DNA from: an uncultured delta proteobacterium
Lineage (GTDB): Bacteria > Myxococcota_A > Polyangia > Polyangiales > Polyangiaceae
DNA: 64,000 nucleotides
Assembly: GCA_963716725.1 (NCBI GenBank)
Contig: CAVQUB010000001.1
Location: forward strand, 192,001 to 256,000
Reading direction: 5' to 3'
Made by a program: the position numbers and the translations under genes
Shown here: positions 1,875 through 8,093 of the stretch, in pieces
Layout: each line of letters starts with the position of its first letter
Numbering within the stretch: position 1 is the first letter of the stretch
The notes under the pieces: generated by a model
Database searches by the model: none
The model's input: only the letters and a program-made list of their open reading frames with translations
Told to the model about the DNA's origin: nothing

Positions 1875-2477
1875 ATGAGCCGACTTGCGCTGGTGACTGC
1901 GGCGCTCGTGCTGCTGGGGTGCTCGACTGACGAGGGGAGCGGCGGCAGCGGGGGTGCCTCGGGCAGCGGCGGCGCGTCGGGCAGCGGCGGCGCGTCGGGC
2001 GGCGGTGGCGCGGCAGGCAGCGGCGGCGCGGCAGGTAGCGGCGGTGCATCCGGGAGCGGCGGCGTATCCGGGAGCGGCGGCACCTCGACCGGTGGCGCCG
2101 GGGGGACCGGGGGCTCGTCCGCTTGGATCGATCCGCTCGCGGGCGTGGGCAGTGTCGAGAAGGTCGCCGGCGGCTTCACCTTCACGGAGGGGCCGGTTTG
2201 GTTTGCGAAGACCGGAAAGCTCTACTTCAGCGACATCCCGAACACGCGCATCCACGAGCTCTCGCCGCCGAGCAGCGTGAGCGTGTATCGAGAACCGAGC
2301 GGTCAGGCCAACGGGCTCGGCATCGACCAGAATGGCTTGCTCGTTGCGTGTGAACACCAAGGCCGCCGGGTCAGCCGCACCCAGAGCGGCGGCACGGTGG
2401 TCTCGGTCGCCAGCACGTATCAAGGCAAGAAGCTCAACTCCCCGAACGACGTGATCGTGAAGAAGGACGGCAATTAA
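1875..2477 (+). pseudogene. SMP-30/gluconolactonase family lipoprotein, 5' part, truncated by the inserted element
   Basis: Lipobox LLGC, Gly/Ser linker, FTFTEGPVW, LYFSDIP, ANGL, LNSPNDV. The stop TAA (2475-2477) is supplied by the element's left inverted repeat. Confidence 0.9.
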
Positions 2478-2487
2478 CCGGCCAATC
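2475..2487 (+). repeat. Left terminal inverted repeat (13 bp)
   Basis: TAACCGGCCAATC, the exact reverse complement of 6131-6143. Confidence 0.93.
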
Positions 2488-2499
2488 GTGCCGCGCTCC

Positions 2500-3882
2500 T
2501 CAGCGCGGAGATTTGCGAAGCAGTCTGCGGAGATCGGCTTGCAGTCGGCGGACACGTCGGACGAGCATGCGTGCGGAGTCGCGATCGAGCCCATCGTCTT
2601 GGGTGCGCTTCTGCACGTATCTAGCGAGGTCGGCCAGCAACTTGAGGGGCTCCGGAGCGGGGGGTGAGGCGGTAGCAGCCGTGGGAGTGATCATGGGGTA
2701 GCGCTCGGCAATTCGCTCGAGTGCCGCGGCGAATTCGGCGAACACGGTGGTGCCGGTGATCTCCGCGTATCGCAGGGTCATGCGGTAGTCGGTGTGGCCG
2801 AGCAATCGCATGACCGAGGGAAGGCTCATTCCTGCGGCCAGGAGCGATGTCGCGTAGGTGTGACGGAGGCGATGCGTCGTCATCGGTTCGGCGAACTGAA
2901 TGCCACGGCAGGCCTCGCGAAGTGCTTCTCTATAGGACCCGTAAAGGGTCTTGCGACCGGCGGCAGTTGCGAGCAGCAGGGTGCGCTTACGCGGGCCTGT
3001 CCGCCGCAATCTGGAAACGAGCGTGACGGTGCGCGGATCGAGCGGGACCAGCCGCTCGGTGGCGAGCTTGCCGAGCGGGACCTTGAGCAGGGTGTTGCCG
3101 CTGTGGTCGGTGCGGATGCAGTGGTACGGTAATGCGATGAGCTCGCCGATGCGAAGTCCGGTGCGTCGCATCAGGAGCAAACCGAGCTGATACATGCACC
3201 CGGACTTCTTGAACCGGCGCTGAAGGAGGAGGTCGGTGTCAGGAGGAACCGGGCGAGGCAGGTACTTGGGGAGCTTCGGCAGGTCGCTGCCACGGATCAA
3301 TGTGTCGGCGGGCACAGAGAGCACGCGCTGCTCTTCGAGCGACTCGAGGTACGCGCGGATGTTCTGGATGGCGTGAACTCGGGTGCAGGCAGCGAGGTGG
3401 CGAGCGTGGAGCCAGGCGAGCCAGGACTCGATGTGTGAACGCTCCAGGCCGACGAGAGACACATGGTTGGCGTTGAGCCAGATGTGAAACTGTCGGAGAT
3501 GGGTTTGATAGGCGCGTACGGTCTGCAGCGAGTGCGTGGGTTTGAGCAATTCGAGGAAGCGGCTGGCATGTGGTGGCAGCGGGAAATTCGAACGCGGCCA
3601 AGCGCAACGCGGGTCGAAGCCGAGGAGACCACGTGCATGAAGCCACTCGAAATACATCAGGGCGAGGCGGCGTTGGCGGGCGCGCACATGCTCGGGCACC
3701 GGCGCCTTGGATGGCTGCTGAAGGAAGCGATCGATTTCCGAGCTCTCGAGCTGCAGGATCGGCCGGCAGCTGGCCTTCAACCAAAGGTGAAATTGGCTCA
3801 GAACGCCGCGCGCTCTCGGCTCGCGCTGCAAGAATTCGAGCGCGAAAGGGGGCAGATGGGCGAGGGGGTCGCGGCGCGCCAT
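2500..3882 (-). CDS. Tyrosine recombinase B (larger, Tn554 TnpB-like)
   Basis: TGLRIGE, PLGKLATERLVPL, HRLRHTYAT, LLGH, TLRY: complete R-K-H-R-H-Y set, with N- and C-terminal extensions. Confidence 0.93.
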   Translation of the reverse strand: MARRDPLAHLPPFALEFLQREPRARGVLSQFHLWLKASCRPILQLESSEIDRFLQQPSKAPVPEHVRARQRRLALMYFEWLHARGLLGFDPRCAWPRSNFPLPPHASRFLELLKPTHSLQTVRAYQTHLRQFHIWLNANHVSLVGLERSHIESWLAWLHARHLAACTRVHAIQNIRAYLESLEEQRVLSVPADTLIRGSDLPKLPKYLPRPVPPDTDLLLQRRFKKSGCMYQLGLLLMRRTGLRIGELIALPYHCIRTDHSGNTLLKVPLGKLATERLVPLDPRTVTLVSRLRRTGPRKRTLLLATAAGRKTLYGSYREALREACRGIQFAEPMTTHRLRHTYATSLLAAGMSLPSVMRLLGHTDYRMTLRYAEITGTTVFAEFAAALERIAERYPMITPTAATASPPAPEPLKLLADLARYVQKRTQDDGLDRDSARMLVRRVRRLQADLRRLLRKSPR

Positions 3883-3891
3883 GATGCAATC

Positions 3892-4941
3892 TCATTGCCG
3901 ATAGCGGGCGGCGATTTTCTTGAGCGCGCGCCGGAACTCGTCGGCCACGTCGGCCATGGACAACCGTACGTACTGCAGTGTTGTCTTCAGATCGGCATGG
4001 CCCATCATCTGTTGCAGAACGGGCAAGCGCACACCAGCGCGCGCCATGTCGGCCCCGAACGTGTGTCGAAACCGGTGGGGGTTGGCGATCGCGAGCACGC
4101 GCCGGCGACGACGATGCCGGAACAAGCTCCTCAGTCCAGCCGGCGTCATGGGCTGGCCGCGGCGCTTACCCTGTAAGACGACGAACAGACTCGGCTTGCT
4201 ACACTGCCTGGGCCTCTCGAGCTCGAGGTACCGCCGCAACGTGCGTGAGAGCACGAGCGGCAAGGGCAGTGCGCGGTCGCGCTGCCCTTTGCCGCAGACG
4301 CGAACACGGCCGTCGCTGAAAACGACGTCGGCAAGCTCGAGCCCGAGAACTTCAGCCGAGCGAAGGCCGCACAGGAGCATGAAATGGGTGATGGCGAGAT
4401 CCCTGTAGCGGGTGAGACTGCGAAGGAACGCTCGCACCTGCTCGGGCGTGAGCGGCTCGACGAGCTTGCGCGGCTCTTGGACACGGAGCTTGAGCACGCC
4501 GCGTCGTCGGAGCCGGTGAATGCCGAGGTAGTGATCACGACCGGGCCCCTTGTAGTGCGCAGCGGGCAAGCTCACGCGAGAGCCGACGCCGAGCTCTCGA
4601 TTCATCCAGAAGCGATACAGAAGGCGGGCTGTGGTCAACCGGCGATTGATTGAGCGTGGCTCTGCGCCGGCCTTGCGTTGCGCTGCGATGAACCCCAACA
4701 AGTCGCGTGCCTCGAGCTGCCGAAGCGAGCGCCCCTCAGCACGCATCCATCGATAGAGCAGCAGCAGATCATATGCGTACGCCCGGACCGTACGCCGGGA
4801 TAATCCGCGGACCCCGAGTGCCGAGAGAAACTCATGAACCTCGGCGACCACGCCATTGGCATCCACGAGCGAATGGCCAATCTCCGAGTGCGCGACCACG
4901 CGCAAGGCGGTACCGAGGTCGCATTGCAGGCTGCTGCTCAT
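3892..4941 (-). CDS. Tyrosine recombinase A (Tn554 TnpA-like)
   Basis: SRRTVRAYAYDL N-terminal motif, CGLRSAE, GKGQRDR, HRFRHTFG, MMGH, TLQY. Confidence 0.93.
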   Translation of the reverse strand: MSSSLQCDLGTALRVVAHSEIGHSLVDANGVVAEVHEFLSALGVRGLSRRTVRAYAYDLLLLYRWMRAEGRSLRQLEARDLLGFIAAQRKAGAEPRSINRRLTTARLLYRFWMNRELGVGSRVSLPAAHYKGPGRDHYLGIHRLRRRGVLKLRVQEPRKLVEPLTPEQVRAFLRSLTRYRDLAITHFMLLCGLRSAEVLGLELADVVFSDGRVRVCGKGQRDRALPLPLVLSRTLRRYLELERPRQCSKPSLFVVLQGKRRGQPMTPAGLRSLFRHRRRRRVLAIANPHRFRHTFGADMARAGVRLPVLQQMMGHADLKTTLQYVRLSMADVADEFRRALKKIAARYRQ

Positions 4942-5237
4942 GGCACTGCACGTCGCTGGTGCGCTCGGATGCCGTGGTGCACGGTGGCGTGATCGCGACG
5001 GAACAGCGATGCAATCTCCAGGAGGCTGTAATGGCGATCGGACTGATTACGAATCAGCCACCAGAGCTCCTGGCGTGCACGTGACACGCTCGAGGTCCGA
5101 GCTCGGCCGCAGAGCTCTTCCCGAACCACGCCACGACGACGGCAGACGTCCTCGAGCAAGGGCGTGAGATTGCGCACCTCGAGCGCTGCGAGGACGGCCG
5201 TGGCGCTGCTCGCGCCGTCGGGGCTGGGCGCGGTCAT
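4938..5237 (-). CDS. Stand-alone DnaA C-terminal (domain IV)-like helix-turn-helix protein
   Basis: VSRARQELWWL...SLLEIASLFRRDHATVHHG resembles the DnaA signature (R-Q...SLxEIG..F.RDHTTV). ATGA-coupled to both neighbours. Confidence 0.8.
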   Translation of the reverse strand: MTAPSPDGASSATAVLAALEVRNLTPLLEDVCRRRGVVREELCGRARTSSVSRARQELWWLIRNQSDRHYSLLEIASLFRRDHATVHHGIRAHQRRAVP

Positions 5238-5608
5238 CGAGGCACTCCGAAGAGCAGCATCTGCCTCAAATCGCAGAATTCACCGACGCCCACGAGGTCG
5301 CGATGACGGCGACGAACGCGAGCGGGCGGTGGTACCCAGTCCACGGTGTACAGCGGCGCCCCGTTGTCGATTGGGATCCCATCGTAGGCTGACAAGTCCG
5401 CTTCGACGCCCCGCTCTTCCGCAGCGAGCGCAACGCGGACCGGTTGCCCCTGCCACAGCGCCAGCGCCTCGAGCAGAAGCGGCAACGCCCGAGGGTGCGT
5501 CGGCGGGCGCAGCAACCGGGCCTTTAGAATCGTCTCGCTCGGGCCGGCCATTGCGAGCACGCGCATCTCCTGGGGCCCAGGTGCAACGCCCATCCAAATC
5601 GAGCTCAT
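5234..5608 (-). CDS. Element-encoded hypothetical protein (124 aa)
   Basis: ATG at 5608 with GGGAG RBS. LKARL..P.HPRAL..LLEALALWQG motif. The stop overlaps the ATG of the DnaA-like ORF. Confidence 0.7.
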   Translation of the reverse strand: MSSIWMGVAPGPQEMRVLAMAGPSETILKARLLRPPTHPRALPLLLEALALWQGQPVRVALAAEERGVEADLSAYDGIPIDNGAPLYTVDWVPPPARVRRRHRDLVGVGEFCDLRQMLLFGVPR

Positions 5609-5924
5609 GGGTCGACTCCCGCTCCGAGCTCGATGCCGCCCCAACGACGGCCTCGGCTACGAACGGGACGACCATCTCACGATGGCCAAGTTTTTCGGCT
5701 GTGCTGTGCGTTACATTTTTCTGCTGCTCACGCCAGCGAGCCACTCGCGCCGCCGTCGTCGTGTGCCCCAGCTTGCTGCGGCGGTACCGGCGCACGGACG
5801 CTTCGCGCGACAAGCGTCGGCACTCCGGGTCGCAGAACAGCCTGCCGTAGTTGCACGCCGGGCAAACGTCGAGCACGTTGTGGCATCCAACGCGAGAACA
5901 CTTCGCCTGCTGAAAAACGACCAC
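5280..5924 (-). CDS. Cys-rich putative Zn-binding, basic protein (element accessory)
   Basis: CSRVGC, CPAC, CDPEC, an Arg-rich helix and a C-terminal RCARCGR. First ORF of the element operon; overlaps the next ORF by 329 nt. Confidence 0.6.
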   Translation of the reverse strand: MVVFQQAKCSRVGCHNVLDVCPACNYGRLFCDPECRRLSREASVRRYRRSKLGHTTTAARVARWREQQKNVTHSTAEKLGHREMVVPFVAEAVVGAASSSERESTHELDLDGRCTWAPGDARARNGRPERDDSKGPVAAPADAPSGVAASARGAGAVAGATGPRCARCGRAGRRSGLVSLRWDPNRQRGAAVHRGLGTTARSRSSPSSRPRGRR

Positions 5925-6130
5925 CGCTGCGAATGCAGAAAGCTGGCCGCAGCACGGGGTGGCATGCGAGGGTAGCGCCGTCGACCGCGACCACCGCGAC
6001 GACCTGAGGGCTCGGAAGTGACCATCCGGGCCCTCTCACTTTCTTCCGCCGTGATCATGGCTGATTCGACACGGCACGGGCCAACTCGGGGCAGAGGGAA
6101 CAGAACGAATCGCCCATATCGGCGACCCGA

Positions 6131-6143
6131 GATTGGCCGGTTA
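6131..6143 (-). repeat. Right terminal inverted repeat (13 bp)
   Basis: GATTGGCCGGTTA, followed by GATCT-CAAT and then the resumed host gene. Confidence 0.93.
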
Positions 6144-6152
6144 GATCTCAAT

Positions 6153-6620
6153 CTCTATTTCACCGATCCGCCCTACGGAGGGAACCCGAACGAGCTGGGG
6201 TTCCAGGGCGTATTCCGCGTCGATCCGAGCGGCGCGCTCTCGCTGGTCGCGAGCGACATGTTTCGCCCCAACGGCATCGCGCTCGCGAGCGACGAGAAGA
6301 CGCTCTACGTGACGGACTCGGAGCAGAACTTCATTCGGACCTACGTCGTTGCCAGCGATGGTGCCACGTCGAGCCCGAAGAAGTTCCTCGACACTGCGGC
6401 GACCCCGGACGGCATGGCGGTGAACTTGCAAGGCGATCTGTTCATCAGCACCCAAGCGGGCGTCGAGGCGTACAAGGCCGACGGCACCAAGCTCGGCACC
6501 ATCCCCGTGCCCGAGCAGCCGTCCAATTGCACCTTCGGCGGCACGGACGGCAAGACGCTGTACATCACGGCGCGCAAATCGCTCTACCGGGTCGCGCTCG
6601 GCGTGGCGGGGTTGCCTTGA
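6153..6620 (+). pseudogene. SMP-30/gluconolactonase, 3' part
   Basis: LYFTDPPYG, PNGIAL, LYVTDS, PDGMAV, PSNCTFGG, LYITARKSLYR. Joins in frame to 1875-2474 to give 355 aa. Confidence 0.9.
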
Positions 6621-7538: not shown

Positions 7539-7865
7539 TCAGTCGCACCCGACCGCGATGGCGAGCGCGCGGCAGATGTCGCTCATCTTGTCCGGGCGGA
7601 CGGTGCCGACGAGCCGCGACAGATCTCGTTGTCGCACCGTTTGCACGTTGGCGAGATTGGCGCATGACGGCGCCTTCAGTCCGTCTTCGACACCGAGCTC
7701 GACTTCAGTGGGCGAGCCGTGCGTCGTGGTGGTGATTGGCACGACCGTGGCCGTCTGCAGAACATCGAGCAAGACCTGTCGACTCAGCACCAGGACCGGT
7801 CGCCGCTTGTCGGGCGGCCGGAACGCGTAGAGGCGGATCTCGCCGCGGCTCACTTCTCGGGCCAT
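7539..7865 (-). CDS. mazF: PemK/MazF family toxin
   Basis: RGEI..Y.F..PDKRRPVLVLSR, VVPITT, 108 aa; overlaps the upstream antitoxin. Confidence 0.88.
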   Translation of the reverse strand: MAREVSRGEIRLYAFRPPDKRRPVLVLSRQVLLDVLQTATVVPITTTTHGSPTEVELGVEDGLKAPSCANLANVQTVRQRDLSRLVGTVRPDKMSDICRALAIAVGCD

Positions 7866-8093
7866 GCTTGCCCCTCGAGCATGGCTTCGACATCTGCCAG
7901 GAGCTCGTCGTGCTTGCCCGCGAATGCGCTGCGGATGCTCTGGTCGATGTCACGCCGGCGCTTCGCGTCGAGGTACAGCAAGACCGCATCGCGGATGAAG
8001 GCCGAGCGGCCCTCCTTCTTGGTCTTGGGATCGCGGTCGATGCGCGCGAGCAACTCGCGGTCGACCGAGATTCTGAACGGGCTTGGCGCTCAT
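7850..8093 (-). CDS. Ribbon-helix-helix antitoxin (apparent +1 frameshift at 8071-8072)
   Basis: Removing one base gives MSAKPVQISVDRELLARID...RSAFIRDAV, an 80-aa RHH-type protein. Confidence 0.78.

Follow-up and report, generated by a model that had tools for sequence, protein, structure and literature searches.

What has split the gluconolactonase gene in this 64,000-nucleotide stretch of DNA (the window), and does it belong to a known class of mobile element? An earlier note had described the inserted segment as a minus-strand operon with two tyrosine recombinases that fits neither the RIT nor the Tn554 elements. We find that it is a genuine, compact, multicopy and recently active element with sharp common ends, and we consider it likely to be an autonomous, cargo-free, IS-like site-specific transposon that forms a divergent branch of the Tn554 (TnpA/TnpB) superfamily.

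Limits, copies and insertion site

The insertion is 3,678 bp long and is bounded by perfect 13-bp inverted repeats, which confirms the 3.7-kb segment of the earlier note (Table 1). The limits given there, 2471 and 6152, are the outer edges of the two flanking CAAT copies (2471-2474 and 6149-6152). A 5-nt GATCT (6144-6148) separates IRR from the right CAAT, so the ends of the element are not fully symmetrical. The exact 13-mer occurs seven times in the whole 7.9-Mb assembly, where ~0.24 chance occurrences are expected, and all seven are element ends; contig C10 holds one further site with one mismatch. The search for further copies with these repeats, as the note had proposed, yielded three full copies and one cut copy in the source genome (G000) that are 97.5-100% identical: the full window copy (C1), C33 (99.6% identical to it), C31 (99.6%, both recombinase frames disrupted by indels) and C15 (97.5%, cut by a contig end). 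In the other copies CAAT stands on the left, CAAC on the right. In assembly unitigs from four runs, breaks fall at 2471 and 6151, with three different flanks. C33 and C31, whose flanks are 96-98% alike, could be one locus in two strains instead of separate insertions. Neither a joined-end circle nor an empty-site joint was found in contigs covering the region; contigs drop rare forms, so the absence of a transposition intermediate is weak counter-evidence. The ORFs and Pfam matches within the element include no cargo, conjugation or phage genes, as the note had stated.

The element splits the SGL/gluconolactonase gene at one Asn codon, and the SGL profile is divided at position 98, in agreement with the proposed insertion into this gene. 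The relative with an empty allele is a same-genus genome (G001), in which the SGL gene is uninterrupted and the site, with a single Asn codon, reads GACGGTAAC/CTCTAC. Five of the six copies in two genomes (G000 and G003) sit in mutually homologous flanks that are more diverged than the elements themselves: in G003 the elements are 96% identical versus 82% and 75% for the flanks, and C15 and C33 of G000 share 96.8% identity in the element versus 78-92% in the flanks. The flanks of unrelated metagenomic members look alike, with GAAA..CGTC on both sides. We infer from these flanking sequences that a preferred target exists and that the gluconolactonase gene is a secondary site; the primary target was observed only in its occupied state.

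Table 1. Features of the element and its insertion site (window positions).
Feature	Position	Strand	Description
SGL gene, 5' part	1875..2474	+	PF08450 profile positions 1-98
Left CAAT core copy	2471..2474		Target/element crossover region; CAAT here in all copies
IRL	2475..2487	+	TAACCGGCCAATC; motif kept at ends of distant family members
recB	2500..3882	-	460 aa, TnpB-like tyrosine recombinase; PF00589 (5.6e-22), PF02899
recA	3892..4941	-	349 aa, TnpA-like tyrosine recombinase; PF00589 (1.4e-28), PF02899 (2.6e-14)
DnaA_C HTH	4938..5237	-	99 aa, DnaA domain-IV-like; PF08299 (8.4e-13)
Nested gene	5234..5644	-	136-aa ORF; probable start 5608, giving 124 aa; predicted RuvC/RNase H-like fold
Cys-rich ORF	5280..5924	-	214 aa; N-terminal Cys cluster and helical hairpin, disordered linker, C-terminal CxxC (AlphaFold2)
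Hairpin	6006..6035	+	Between Cys gene and IRR; 11-pair stem, then TCACTTTCTT
IRR	6131..6143	+	GATTGGCCGGTTA
Spacer GATCT and right core CAA(T)	6144..6152		GATCT is element-borne; GATCTCAA common to all G000 and G003 copies
SGL gene, 3' part	6149..6620	+	PF08450 profile positions 98-244; 87% identical to intact G001 orthologue

The recombinase pair and its relation to Tn554

All five element genes lie on the minus strand. Alignment bears out that both recombinases keep the full R-K-H-R-H-Y set (R194-K218-H289-R292-H315-Y324 in recA and R244-K267/K272-H337-R340-H363-Y372 in recB), and the recB residues are invariant in 11 homologues. recB has an extra N-terminal region ahead of its SAM-like and catalytic domains. 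No third recombinase-fold gene was detected among the ORFs and Pfam matches of the element.

recA and recB each have their own counterpart in the Tn554 family, TnpA and TnpB respectively, and the gene order agrees. The best cellular matches of the two, at 34-35% identity, are actinobacterial Tn554-related elements, the class described in PMC3414803. Rhodococcus opacus pR1CP1 carries genes for proteins of 360, 637 and 101 aa in a row; recA aligns with the short recombinase (35% identity over 335 aa, E = 1e-49) and recB with the long one (34% over 323 aa, E = 1e-38), whereas crosswise comparison gives no better than E = 9e-12 and 4e-13. The same pairing is seen with an Enterococcus faecium plasmid-borne Tn554-family unit that carries optrA (tnpA 361 aa, tnpB 630 aa, tnpC 125 aa), where recA matches TnpA (26% over 340 aa, E = 3e-26), recB matches TnpB (24% over 339 aa, E = 5e-19) and E values for the cross pairs are 1e-6 and 1e-9. 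With Tn554-family proteins proper, identity is thus just 24-26%, which is a point against the placement.

Because each member of the pair is homologous to its counterpart, TnpA or TnpB, and the order is preserved, we regard the element as a divergent variant rather than a separate kind. The suggestion that neither known family accommodates it is therefore not upheld, and of the distinct family of minimal transposons that had been suggested, what survives is a compact two-recombinase element with an unusual accessory module. Like the Tn554 family, it has two adjacent co-oriented recombinase genes, a short TnpA-like followed by a longer TnpB-like one, both predicted from their residues to be catalytically complete; it lacks Xis and conjugation genes, shows a strong site preference with occasional secondary sites (its preferred target and the gluconolactonase site mirror the primary and secondary sites of Tn554), leaves no clear-cut target duplication and has a short element-borne sequence at one junction. 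It departs from three descriptive Tn554 traits, which also counts against the placement: recB is only 460 aa long, compared with 611-828 aa for the long recombinases described from Tn554-related elements, the downstream TnpC is absent, and the 13-bp terminal repeats are perfect. Unlike Tn554, it also lacks cargo and has an upstream Cys-rich protein, to which a nested RuvC-like gene and a DnaA_C HTH may or may not be added, and the hosts of its branch are Myxococcota and Bdellovibrionota. The TnpC-like protein of the Rhodococcus element has no Cys and is unrelated in sequence.

Members of this branch are spread widely across Myxococcota and Bdellovibrionota: of 57 loci collected from genome contigs, 50 have a strong recB match, and a terminal repeat of the TAACCGGCC type is conserved in the branch. 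A recA-like gene adjoins the recB-like gene in 44 of the 45 loci with room for it, and a profile recognized the Cys ORF in 32 of 40; on visual inspection, at least five of the eight profile-negative loci have a related basic, Cys-rich ORF. The terminal motif, TAACCGGCC(AA) or, in Bdellovibrionota-type members, TTAGCGGCCC, flanks units of 2.9-3.7 kb (8 loci), and the core triplet beside IRL, CAA or GTC depending on the subfamily, is repeated 5 nt outside IRR. Bdellovibrionota-type members lack the RuvC-like gene and keep the repeats and the recombinase pair. These loci show that the recombinase pair, the TAACCGGCC-type repeats and the upstream Cys-rich gene travel together at dozens of loci in two phyla, as the earlier note had anticipated for the recombinases, repeats and accessory ORFs. 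The five-gene order of the window is not a family trait, since the DnaA_C gene is confined to the window lineage and the 136-aa gene turned up in nine of 40 loci.

Other multi-recombinase systems share single traits with the element. RIT elements are likewise compact and cargo-poor, with tyrosine recombinases and terminal inverted repeats, and RitA is described with two core-binding domains, recalling the extended N-terminal part of recB; by description they are set apart by three recombinase genes with short overlaps, where the element has two. SEs and GInts are also non-conjugative integrative elements with several recombinases, short terminal motifs, target preference and a deterministic asymmetric junction (theirs a 6-bp footprint), and the small accessory protein that they require for attL x attR recombination may be likened to the accessory part of the element. 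SEs, however, have four core genes (intA, tfp, intB and srap) and cargo, GInts have three integrase-like genes and ginD, and both are reported only from Gamma- and Betaproteobacteria.

Accessory genes and their IS21-type counterparts

The minus-strand operon of the earlier note stands as to its strand and genes, but the Cys ORF, rather than being a short gene upstream, shares 365 nt with the 136-aa ORF in a different frame. The long Cys frame is open in all nine loci first examined. An alignment of 40 Cys proteins shows C14, C19, C36 and C173 unchanged in every sequence, and C26 and C170 in almost every one; all retain the C-terminal CxxC, including short forms without the nested ORF. The stop of the nested gene overlaps the start of the next gene, and the nested gene is conserved in 14 of 61 related genomes. 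At both Cys-codon sites its third codon position, a synonymous one, is T in 46 of 46 cases, compared with 326 of 3,071 (10.6%) overall. The 124-aa ORF that the note had left unassigned is a genuine gene that lies within the Cys gene in another frame.

The AlphaFold2 model of the nested protein (pLDDT 75.7) has the topology b1-b2-b3-a-b4-a-b5-a. Its best structural matches are RuvC-type domains, namely those of Cas12i (Z 9.3), poxvirus resolvase (Z 9.3), ISCro4 (Z 7.9) and RuvC (Z 7.7), with Z scores that barely exceed the range the tool calls common. The predicted RuvC/RNase H-like fold lacks the first catalytic Asp. Profile-profile comparison with IS110 N-terminal domains was negative. On the strand opposite to the genes, the hairpin has the form of an intrinsic terminator followed by a T-rich tail; it is kept in tyrosine recombinase and IS21-type elements, with compensatory changes in four of six predicted pairs.

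The two-gene cassette and its conserved hairpin also head genuine IS21-family (DDE) elements. Homologues of the nested gene are followed by IstA-like genes at 11 loci in eight genomes (six checked by Pfam/NCBIfam), and in one of these elements TGT-type inverted repeats occur together with an 8-bp direct repeat. An IS21 subgroup from the same bacterial order shares with our element the leader hairpin and an overlapping Cys/RuvC-like pair that is translationally coupled to the first transposase gene. The element nevertheless lacks IstA (the DDE transposase), IstB (the AAA+ helper), TGT-type ends and a 4-8-bp duplication of the IS21 type, and DDE and tyrosine chemistries are unrelated. The note had proposed that the accessory proteins control directionality, targeting or timing; their presence in IS21-family and other DDE transposons argues for a general rather than a recombinase-specific role. 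The DnaA_C gene occurs only in the source genome, two G003 copies and two metagenome contigs, and its homologues also close DDE/AAA+ transposon operons; we infer a lineage-specific late addition borrowed from such operons.

Proposed mechanism and alternative explanations

We propose that the recombinase pair binds the terminal 13-bp repeats and brings the two ends into synapsis. The joined-end intermediate would read IRR-GATCT-CAA-T-IRL, a 13-9-13 core-type site, and would recombine with a target that shares little beyond the CAA triplet, the crossover points being approximate; because so little need be in common, no true target duplication would be made. The element-type GATCT lies on the Cys side at every junction seen. 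This constancy would fit either a strand-biased exchange of the kind reported for Tn554 and SEs or one that is limited to a single overlap edge. CTnDOT/Tn916-type integrases, which are single, arm-binding enzymes of conjugative elements, tolerate overlap heterology (PMC2817482); in the element, identity between junction and target is just ~3-4 nt at one overlap edge, and the likeness may reflect a possible working mode, not membership.

The Cys-rich zinc-type protein would fill the place of TnpC in Tn554. In the window subfamily, the part of the Cys gene that specifies the disordered linker would also encode, in another frame, a presumably catalytically dead RuvC-like protein, and both genes with the upstream hairpin, a putative antisense-strand terminator, would form a portable cassette. 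It would most likely control expression or timing of the downstream transposase, or bind branched or terminal DNA generally. Since bona fide IS21 elements carry the cassette before istA-istB, a regulatory or general DNA-binding job is most likely, and the cassette probably has no recombinase-specific catalytic role.

Could the cassette instead choose the target, steering the downstream recombinase pair or IstAB to a safe repeated site? The strong site preference of the tyrosine recombinase element, the homologous flanks of five of six copies, the similar flanks of unrelated metagenomic members and portability between transposon classes would all suit such a module, and a dead RuvC-like fold might recognize DNA structure. 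We think this rather unlikely: Bdellovibrionota-type members without the RuvC-like gene keep repeats and pair, the IS21-type element examined occupies a different sequence and is flanked by an ordinary 8-bp duplication, and the window copy entered an unrelated site.

The homology of the cassette and ~190 nt upstream of it to IS21-type elements, a resident IS21-type element at C1:287 kb whose nested gene is 60% identical, and CAAT on both sides of the window copy might also suggest a non-autonomous chimera, an IS21-derived left part with foreign recombinases moved in trans by IstA/IstB, CAAT being a 4-bp duplication. This is hardly credible, as the ends are not IS21-like (IS21-type relatives begin TGTGG...), the other copies have unequal CAAT and CAAC and an unpaired GATCT, the recombinase pair occurs with the same terminal motif at loci without IS21 genes, even in another phylum, and all catalytic residues of both recombinases are kept under evident constraint. 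That the copies are an assembly artefact, reflecting strain variants or misjoined repeats rather than transposition within one genome, has next to no likelihood. The source is a metagenome-assembled bin (84.5% complete, 3.9% contamination), and both the similar C33/C31 flanks and the indels in C31 might be read in this way; but C1, C15 and C33/C31 have three unrelated flank sets, a relative has the split gene intact, family members are present on contigs of their own in G003 and numerous further genomes and metagenomes, and runs X5 and X6 from independent studies hold the element with the same right junction.

We therefore return to a divergent Tn554-type transposon as the likely identity of the element. 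What it adds to that superfamily is a member without TnpC that has a Cys-rich, zinc-type protein upstream instead, a gene nested within the Cys gene, a cassette held in common with IS21 elements, and the apparent addition of DnaA_C.

Ends, copies and insertion sites of the element

The earlier note had described a 3.7-kb segment bounded by perfect 13-bp inverted repeats, carrying a compact minus-strand operon of five genes and no cargo, conjugation or phage gene. The left and right repeats (IRL and IRR) are indeed exact reverse complements, and ORF and profile scans of the element found nothing resembling cargo, conjugation or phage genes. The ends are nevertheless asymmetric, with GATCT present only outside IRR. 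All five genes are present, although the Cys-rich gene and the supposed 124-aa ORF, here the nested gene, overlap rather than follow one another. Below, recA and recB denote the short TnpA-like and the longer TnpB-like tyrosine recombinases of the element, not the RecA repair protein.

Features of the element and its boundaries (window coordinates)
Feature	Position	Strand	Description
Left CAAT	2471–2474		outside IRL
IRL	2475–2487		TAACCGGCCAATC; IRR is its exact reverse complement
recB	2500–3882	minus	460 aa
recA	3892–4941	minus	349 aa
DnaA domain-IV-like HTH gene	4938–5237	minus	
Nested gene	5234–5644	minus	136 aa
Cys-rich gene	5280–5924	minus	214 aa
IRR	6131–6143		exact reverse complement of IRL TAACCGGCCAATC
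GATCT	6144–6148		directly outside IRR
Right CAAT	6149–6152		outside GATCT

The limits first assigned to the element, 2471 and 6152, run from CAAT to CAAT because copies of this tetranucleotide sit outside both ends; when one CAAT is assigned to the target, the inserted DNA is 3,678 bp long. The nested gene and the HTH gene, and the HTH gene and recA, overlap by 4 nt each, and recA and recB are separated by 9 nt. The 12 nt between the recB stop codon (2500–2502) and IRL are too short for any ORF, and we did not detect a sigma-70-like promoter in window positions 2400–6250. About 45 nt inward of IRR, the terminal repeat recurs in part (GGGCCAACTCGG, 6078–6090; AGTTGGCC on the gene strand), perhaps as a promoter element or as a site bound by the Cys-rich protein.

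A search for further copies with the same repeats, as the earlier note had proposed, found the exact 13-mer seven times in the 7.9-Mb assembly, each time terminating a copy of the element, and one further site with a single mismatch. Besides the window copy, the source genome holds full copies on contigs C33 and C31 (each 99.6% identical) and a partial copy on C15 that ends at the contig edge (97.5% identity over ~1.7 kb); indels disrupt the frames of both recombinases in the C31 copy. These copy numbers are only approximate because the genome was binned (completeness 84.5%, contamination 3.9%), and the C33 and C31 copies, whose flanks are 96–98% alike, could be strain variants of one locus. 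All copies have common ends, with CAAT followed by TAACCGG at one end and CCGGTTA followed by GATCTCAA at the opposite one; directly after GATCTCAA, the window copy has T and the remaining copies have C. Unitigs of four public sequencing runs stop exactly at 2471 and 6151 and continue into three different sets of flanks, and the same right junction was present in two runs from other studies. Neither a circular (joined-end) junction nor an empty site was found among the assembly contigs of public runs that match the region. The element is mobile and has moved recently.

In the window, the insertion interrupts a gluconolactonase-family (SGL) gene. Positions 1–98 of the SGL Pfam profile match to the left of the element and positions 98–244 to the right, and the empty allele that had been suggested as a check exists in a genome of the same genus (G001), where the SGL gene is uninterrupted, 87% identical downstream, and reads GAC GGT AAC / CTC TAC at the insertion site (slash). 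The insertion therefore lies at a single Asn codon and leaves the two halves of the gene otherwise intact. The start of the SGL gene (1926–2121) contains eight tandem 18-nt repeats encoding a Gly/Ser-rich (GSGGAS) linker behind a lipoprotein-like signal peptide. Downstream of the SGL locus, a small overlapping pair of minus-strand genes (7539–8053; 108 and 67 aa) looks, by its layout, like a toxin–antitoxin pair.

The C33, C31 and C15 copies have flanks homologous to one another, as do two copies in another genome of the genus, G003. The two G003 elements are 96% identical whereas their flanks are 82% (left) and 75% (right) identical, and the C15 and C33 elements are 96.8% identical as against 78–92% for the right flank. 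This greater divergence of the flanks fits a history in which the element inserted repeatedly at the same position within a family of diverged repeats. In that case the window copy would occupy a secondary site, with CAA(T) as its sole shared sequence. Left flanks read GAAA-N3-4-GT immediately before CAAT, and those of unrelated metagenomic members are similar. An unoccupied preferred target was not found in the source genome, where a 26-mer search allowing up to five mismatches returned only three occupied sites. Insertion at tRNA genes was ruled out, as tRNA and Rfam scans of the loci of the other copies were empty.

The surroundings of the preferred target have features of their own. The left-flank ORF of the C33 copy has no Pfam match and may resemble HNH endonucleases at their N-terminal end. 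A fragment of a multicopy gene (locus L002, ~1200–1330) with no Pfam match lies some 190 bp away from the C33/C31 insertion; this ~130-nt segment, which also holds a (GAGGGC)n run encoding Pro-Arg repeats, recurs at ~72% identity on many contigs, in at least 12 other places in the source genome. A full-length paralogue (locus L157, 1850–3319) gives a borderline HNH match (21.1 bits, cut-off 21.4), the sole support for the HNH resemblance, and has a RuvA_C-like tail. Within the first ~90 nt past GATCTCAA in the right flanks of C33, C31 and C15, the repeat core occurs several times in degenerate form (AAGCCGGCCACA, AAACCGGACCGGCCACA and AAGCCGGACCGAC); these sequences may be where recombinases bind the target, or may be left from an older related element.

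When joined, the ends read IRR-GATCT-CAA-T-IRL, with GATCTCAAT between the two repeats. This arrangement of two 13-bp arms and a 9-nt spacer is that of a simple tyrosine-recombinase core site. The recA and recB proteins would bind the arms, bring the ends into synapse and form a joined-end intermediate, which would then recombine with a target having little beyond CAA in common. Every junction seen has the element-type GATCT on the side of the Cys-rich gene and target-type bases on the recB side. Symmetric exchange over a heterologous 6–8-nt overlap followed by replication should produce both arrangements. The constant GATCT side instead suggests either a strand-biased route, which has been described for SEs and proposed for Tn554 (PMC10214605), or homology-dependent exchange at one edge, as set out for IntDOT (PMC2817482).

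Relationship of the recombinases to TnpA and TnpB of Tn554

Library scans labeled the two recombinases merely "Xer-like", with scores under all curated cut-offs. Among plasmid proteins, recB is matched best by long recombinases from actinobacterial elements. On Rhodococcus opacus pR1CP1, the matching 637-aa recombinase stands between a 360-aa recombinase and a 101-aa gene, the layout given for "Tn554-related actinobacterial transposons" in PMC3414803. recA is 35% identical to the short pR1CP1 recombinase over 335 aa (E 1e-49) and recB 34% identical to the long one over 323 aa (E 1e-38), whereas the cross pairs reach at best E 9e-12 and 4e-13 and cover the catalytic domain alone. A Tn554-family unit beside optrA on an Enterococcus faecium plasmid (tnpA, 361 aa; tnpB, 630 aa; tnpC, 125 aa) gave E 3e-26 for recA with TnpA (26% identity, 340 aa) and E 5e-19 for recB with TnpB (24%, 339 aa), against 1e-6 and 1e-9 for the cross pairs. 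The only part that recA and recB share is the C-terminal catalytic motifs, and alignments confirmed the full R-K-H-R-H-Y set that the earlier note had read in both. Because A-to-A and B-to-B matches are better than the cross pairs, these pairwise comparisons argue that recA/recB and TnpA/TnpB derive from one ancestral pair kept in the same order. The claim that the element fits neither of the known families was thus not upheld. The group is a coherent and apparently undescribed one of minimal tyrosine-recombinase transposons, as had been proposed, but it lies within the Tn554 superfamily and not apart from it.

Members of the Tn554 superfamily carry a short TnpA and a longer TnpB gene, adjacent, co-oriented and in that order, as does the window element. 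Described TnpB proteins have about 611–828 aa with a large N-terminal extension, whereas recB has 460 aa (431–485 aa in its family). The tnpC gene downstream of tnpB is missing from the window element, as it is from some Tn554-related elements according to PMC3414803. Perfect inverted-repeat ends and the lack of cargo also set the window element apart from described Tn554 elements. Tn554 is site-specific, makes no target duplication and leaves a one-junction footprint; the preferred target, asymmetric GATCT and shared CAA of the window element are compatible with such behaviour, but neither an unoccupied primary site nor an intermediate turned up. RIT elements have three adjacent tyrosine recombinase genes (ritA, ritB and ritC), while only two PF00589 ORFs lie between the repeats here. 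SE and GInt elements have a four-gene core that includes a non-catalytic recombinase-fold protein (tfp/ginC), and the window element contains no third recombinase-like ORF, its two small proteins being predicted to have a RuvC-like fold and a Cys-rich domain with a helical hairpin; its separation from RIT, SE and GInt is one of gene content rather than of protein comparison.

A large protein collection contains more than 1,100 relatives of recB at E ≤ 1e-10. The best 120 of these are 53–100% identical, are named no further than XerD or integrase, and lie mostly on contigs of ~3.3–5 kb, a length to be expected where a repeat assembles separately. A pattern-based scan with one genome per species yielded 57 loci, 50 of them with a strong recB match, and was far more productive than a phylum-wide sample in which four candidates were scored per genome and recB-like genes were found in 2 of 401 genomes. 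The hosts are Myxococcota (Polyangia, Archangium, Haliangiales and Kofleriaceae) and Bdellovibrionota (Pseudobdellovibrionaceae and Oligoflexales); some loci are on a few small contigs binned to other groups. A recA-like gene lies beside recB in 44 of the 45 loci whose upstream DNA is long enough to show it. The Cys-rich ORF was recognized by profile in 32 of 40 loci, and at least five of the other eight have a related Cys-rich basic ORF by eye. The nested gene is present in 9 of 40 loci and a DnaA_C gene in none of 50. Outside the source genome, the five-gene order was found only in the two G003 copies and two metagenome contigs, and is a local variant rather than a trait of the family.

Units between terminal motifs are 2.9–3.7 kb long. 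The motif is conserved: Polyangia-type members have TAACCGGCC(AA), a Pseudobdellovibrio bin has TTAACCGGCCTT, and bins of Oligoflexia/Bdellovibrionales have TTAGCGGCCC. The triplet adjacent to IRL reappears five bases outside IRR, and subfamilies differ in it at both ends together, having either CAA (window, G003 and loci L115 and L048) or GTC (loci L049, L050 and L051). A co-varying triplet would be the expected appearance of a crossover core shared by attL and attR.

The overlapping Cys-rich and nested genes

The Cys-rich frame is open for 233–253 codons, with a conserved CxxCG at its end, in all nine homologous loci first inspected. In an alignment of 40 sequences that includes Bdellovibrionota-type forms of 120–145 aa without a second ORF, C14, C19, C36 and C173 never vary, and C26, Y35, R70 and C170 hardly do. 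This conservation, which extends to the short forms, indicates that the long Cys ORF is ancestral. The linker is ~90 aa longer in the long forms, and the nested gene occupies the +1 frame of this linker with an overlap of 329–377 nt. The nested gene, too, is real: it is 24–87% identical across 25 sequences, and the downstream gene is coupled to its frame. Two Cys codons of the other frame each start at the third position of a nested-gene codon; this base is T in 46 of 46 cases, while the residue that the nested gene encodes there varies among V, A, C, S and Y. The count is not a formal probability, as the sites were chosen for CxxC and the sequences are related. Overall, T occupies 326 of 3,071 third positions in the nested gene. 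A rare synonymous base kept while the residue changes is the signature one would expect of selection on both frames.

The Cys-rich protein was predicted by AlphaFold2 to have an N-terminal Cys cluster and a helical hairpin (residues 8–83, block means 93–97), a low-confidence linker that spans the overlap, and a CxxC hairpin of moderate confidence. Foldseek found no match among solved structures (best E 2.3). A word-based protein search with the Cys alignment returned 13 proteins, all unnamed and at most 189 aa long compared with 214 aa in the window; gene callers skipping the overlapped frame is one possible reason. Pfam, NCBIfam and a feature-based atlas contain no family for either protein.

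The predicted structure of the nested protein (pLDDT 75.7) has the order b1-b2-b3-a-b4-a-b5-a of an RNase H-like fold. Exhaustive structural alignment placed RuvC-type proteins at the top, with Z scores of 9.3 for Cas12i RuvC, 7.7 for RuvC, 9.3 for canarypox resolvase (116 residues, rmsd 3.4), 8.3–8.8 for the YqgF-like domains of Spt6/Tex and 7.9 for the IS110-family recombinase ISCro4, values barely above the range that the tool calls common. Foldseek against the PDB gave nothing at E ≤ 0.001, only weak RNase H-like rows. A structural match to IS621 (TMq 0.50) and a weak feature-based pointer to the IS110 DEDD domain (0.89) would fit the IS110 family, but hhalign against nine IS110 N-terminal domains gave a probability of 0.4% and there was no Pfam hit (PF01548). 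The position of the first catalytic Asp (b1) is A, Q, R or S instead, and so the nested protein is probably not a nuclease.

A leader cassette common to tyrosine-recombinase and IS21 elements

Homologues of the nested gene are present in 14 of 61 related genomes, with recombinases downstream in the G003 copies only. In 11 loci of eight genomes the coupled next gene is IstA-like, usually followed by IstB. Profile matches verified six of these loci (NCBIfam IS21 transposase, 7.7e-74; IstB helper, 2.3e-67; Pfam rve, Mu-transposase_C and IstB_IS21). One IS21-type element headed by the cassette, i.e., leader hairpin, Cys-rich gene and nested gene, has TGT-type imperfect repeats and an 8-bp direct repeat at its bounds, and two copies in another genome are 99.6% identical starting 264 nt upstream of the Cys domain. 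As these repeats and copies enclose the cassette, it lies inside bona fide IS21-family elements. IS21 encodes IstA (HTH-rve-Mu_C) and IstB (AAA+), has TGT...ACA ends and generates a 4–8-bp duplication, whereas the window element lacks these genes and has different ends; the leader cassette is the sole part they share.

Homology between the two types of element extends upstream of the Cys-rich gene and includes the AGTTGGCC motif and a hairpin in which four of six predicted pairs show compensatory changes. In the window (6006–6035) the hairpin is followed by a T-rich tail on the plus strand, so it is predicted to act as an intrinsic terminator of transcription antisense to the operon; in the alignment, an A-rich run ahead of it on the sense strand is also conserved. 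It may serve an antisense RNA over the Cys start or block outward transcription.

Some cassette-bearing elements are adjacent to, or interrupted by, other mobile DNA. The source genome contains an IS21-family element with a diverged cassette (C1, 286790–289033; 6790–9033 of locus L036) whose nested gene is 60–62% identical, and just upstream (L036, 4663–6228) there is a group II intron reverse transcriptase (TIGR04416, 1.5e-117). On contig C7 of genome G058 (locus L039, 5030–7565), a nested-gene copy is cut at ~90 aa by an IS66-family insertion with TnpA-like, TnpB and IS66 transposase genes. Cassette-bearing elements are in turn hit by other insertion sequences.

The HTH protein matches DnaA domain IV (PF08299, 48.6 bits; cut-off 31.5). 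Close homologues (83–84% identical) are those of the two five-gene metagenome contigs; distant ones (52–59%) stand last in operons of an rve-type transposase with AAA_22 and AAA_25 ATPases, or after IstB. These contexts indicate an accessory common to transposon classes that was acquired late here. Searches for the DnaA-box consensus TTATCCACA with up to one mismatch gave two hits in the 64-kb window, a number expected by chance, and none in the element. Metagenome contigs L119, L121 and L125 share a conserved operon for a 190-aa CxxC protein, an rve-type transposase (~525 aa), AAA_22 and AAA_25 ATPases and a small DnaA_C-like protein, which resembles a transposition module of the Tn7/Tn552 kind and has an unusual gene at its tail.

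What the cassette does has two main readings. It could be a targeting module, which is the main alternative; because it serves both DDE and tyrosine-recombinase engines, we favor control of expression or timing, or a general role in DNA structure. We consider it plausible, though slightly short of probable, that a cassette comprising an antisense-terminator hairpin and a zinc-type Cys protein, with a dead RuvC-like protein encoded in the other frame of its disordered linker, has been exchanged between Tn554-like and IS21 elements, where it would act as a self-contained unit that controls transposition or senses DNA structure for it. With the same reserve, bacteria would have in the nested gene a clear example of lengthy dual coding (about 330–380 nt) maintained throughout an order, and the tyrosine-recombinase elements would be the first in the Tn554 superfamily to form an insertion-sequence-like branch devoid of cargo. 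Their conserved 13-9-13 joined-end site could then serve as a simple integration system run by two recombinases. No description of the element family, the nested gene or the IS21 leader cassette was found in the open full-text literature, a scope that leaves out subscription journals and ISfinder.

Known members of the Tn554 group come mainly from Firmicutes and Actinobacteria, and most carry resistance genes. Only five groups of prokaryotic tyrosine-recombinase transposons were counted in a review-type statement from 2023 (PMC10214605). The two-recombinase engine of Tn554 appears also to drive a minimal insertion-sequence-like element with clean, conserved ends, which soil and freshwater Myxococcota and Bdellovibrionota commonly carry and which, being minimal, would be a simpler system for the division of the reaction between TnpA and TnpB. 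Gene callers and family libraries have missed a long overlapping gene pair that seems to be selected in both frames, as well as the Cys/RuvC-like cassette and the DnaA domain-IV-like protein, modules that appear to move between tyrosine-recombinase and DDE transposons. Such module exchange would bear on how transposons regulate themselves regardless of their chemistry.
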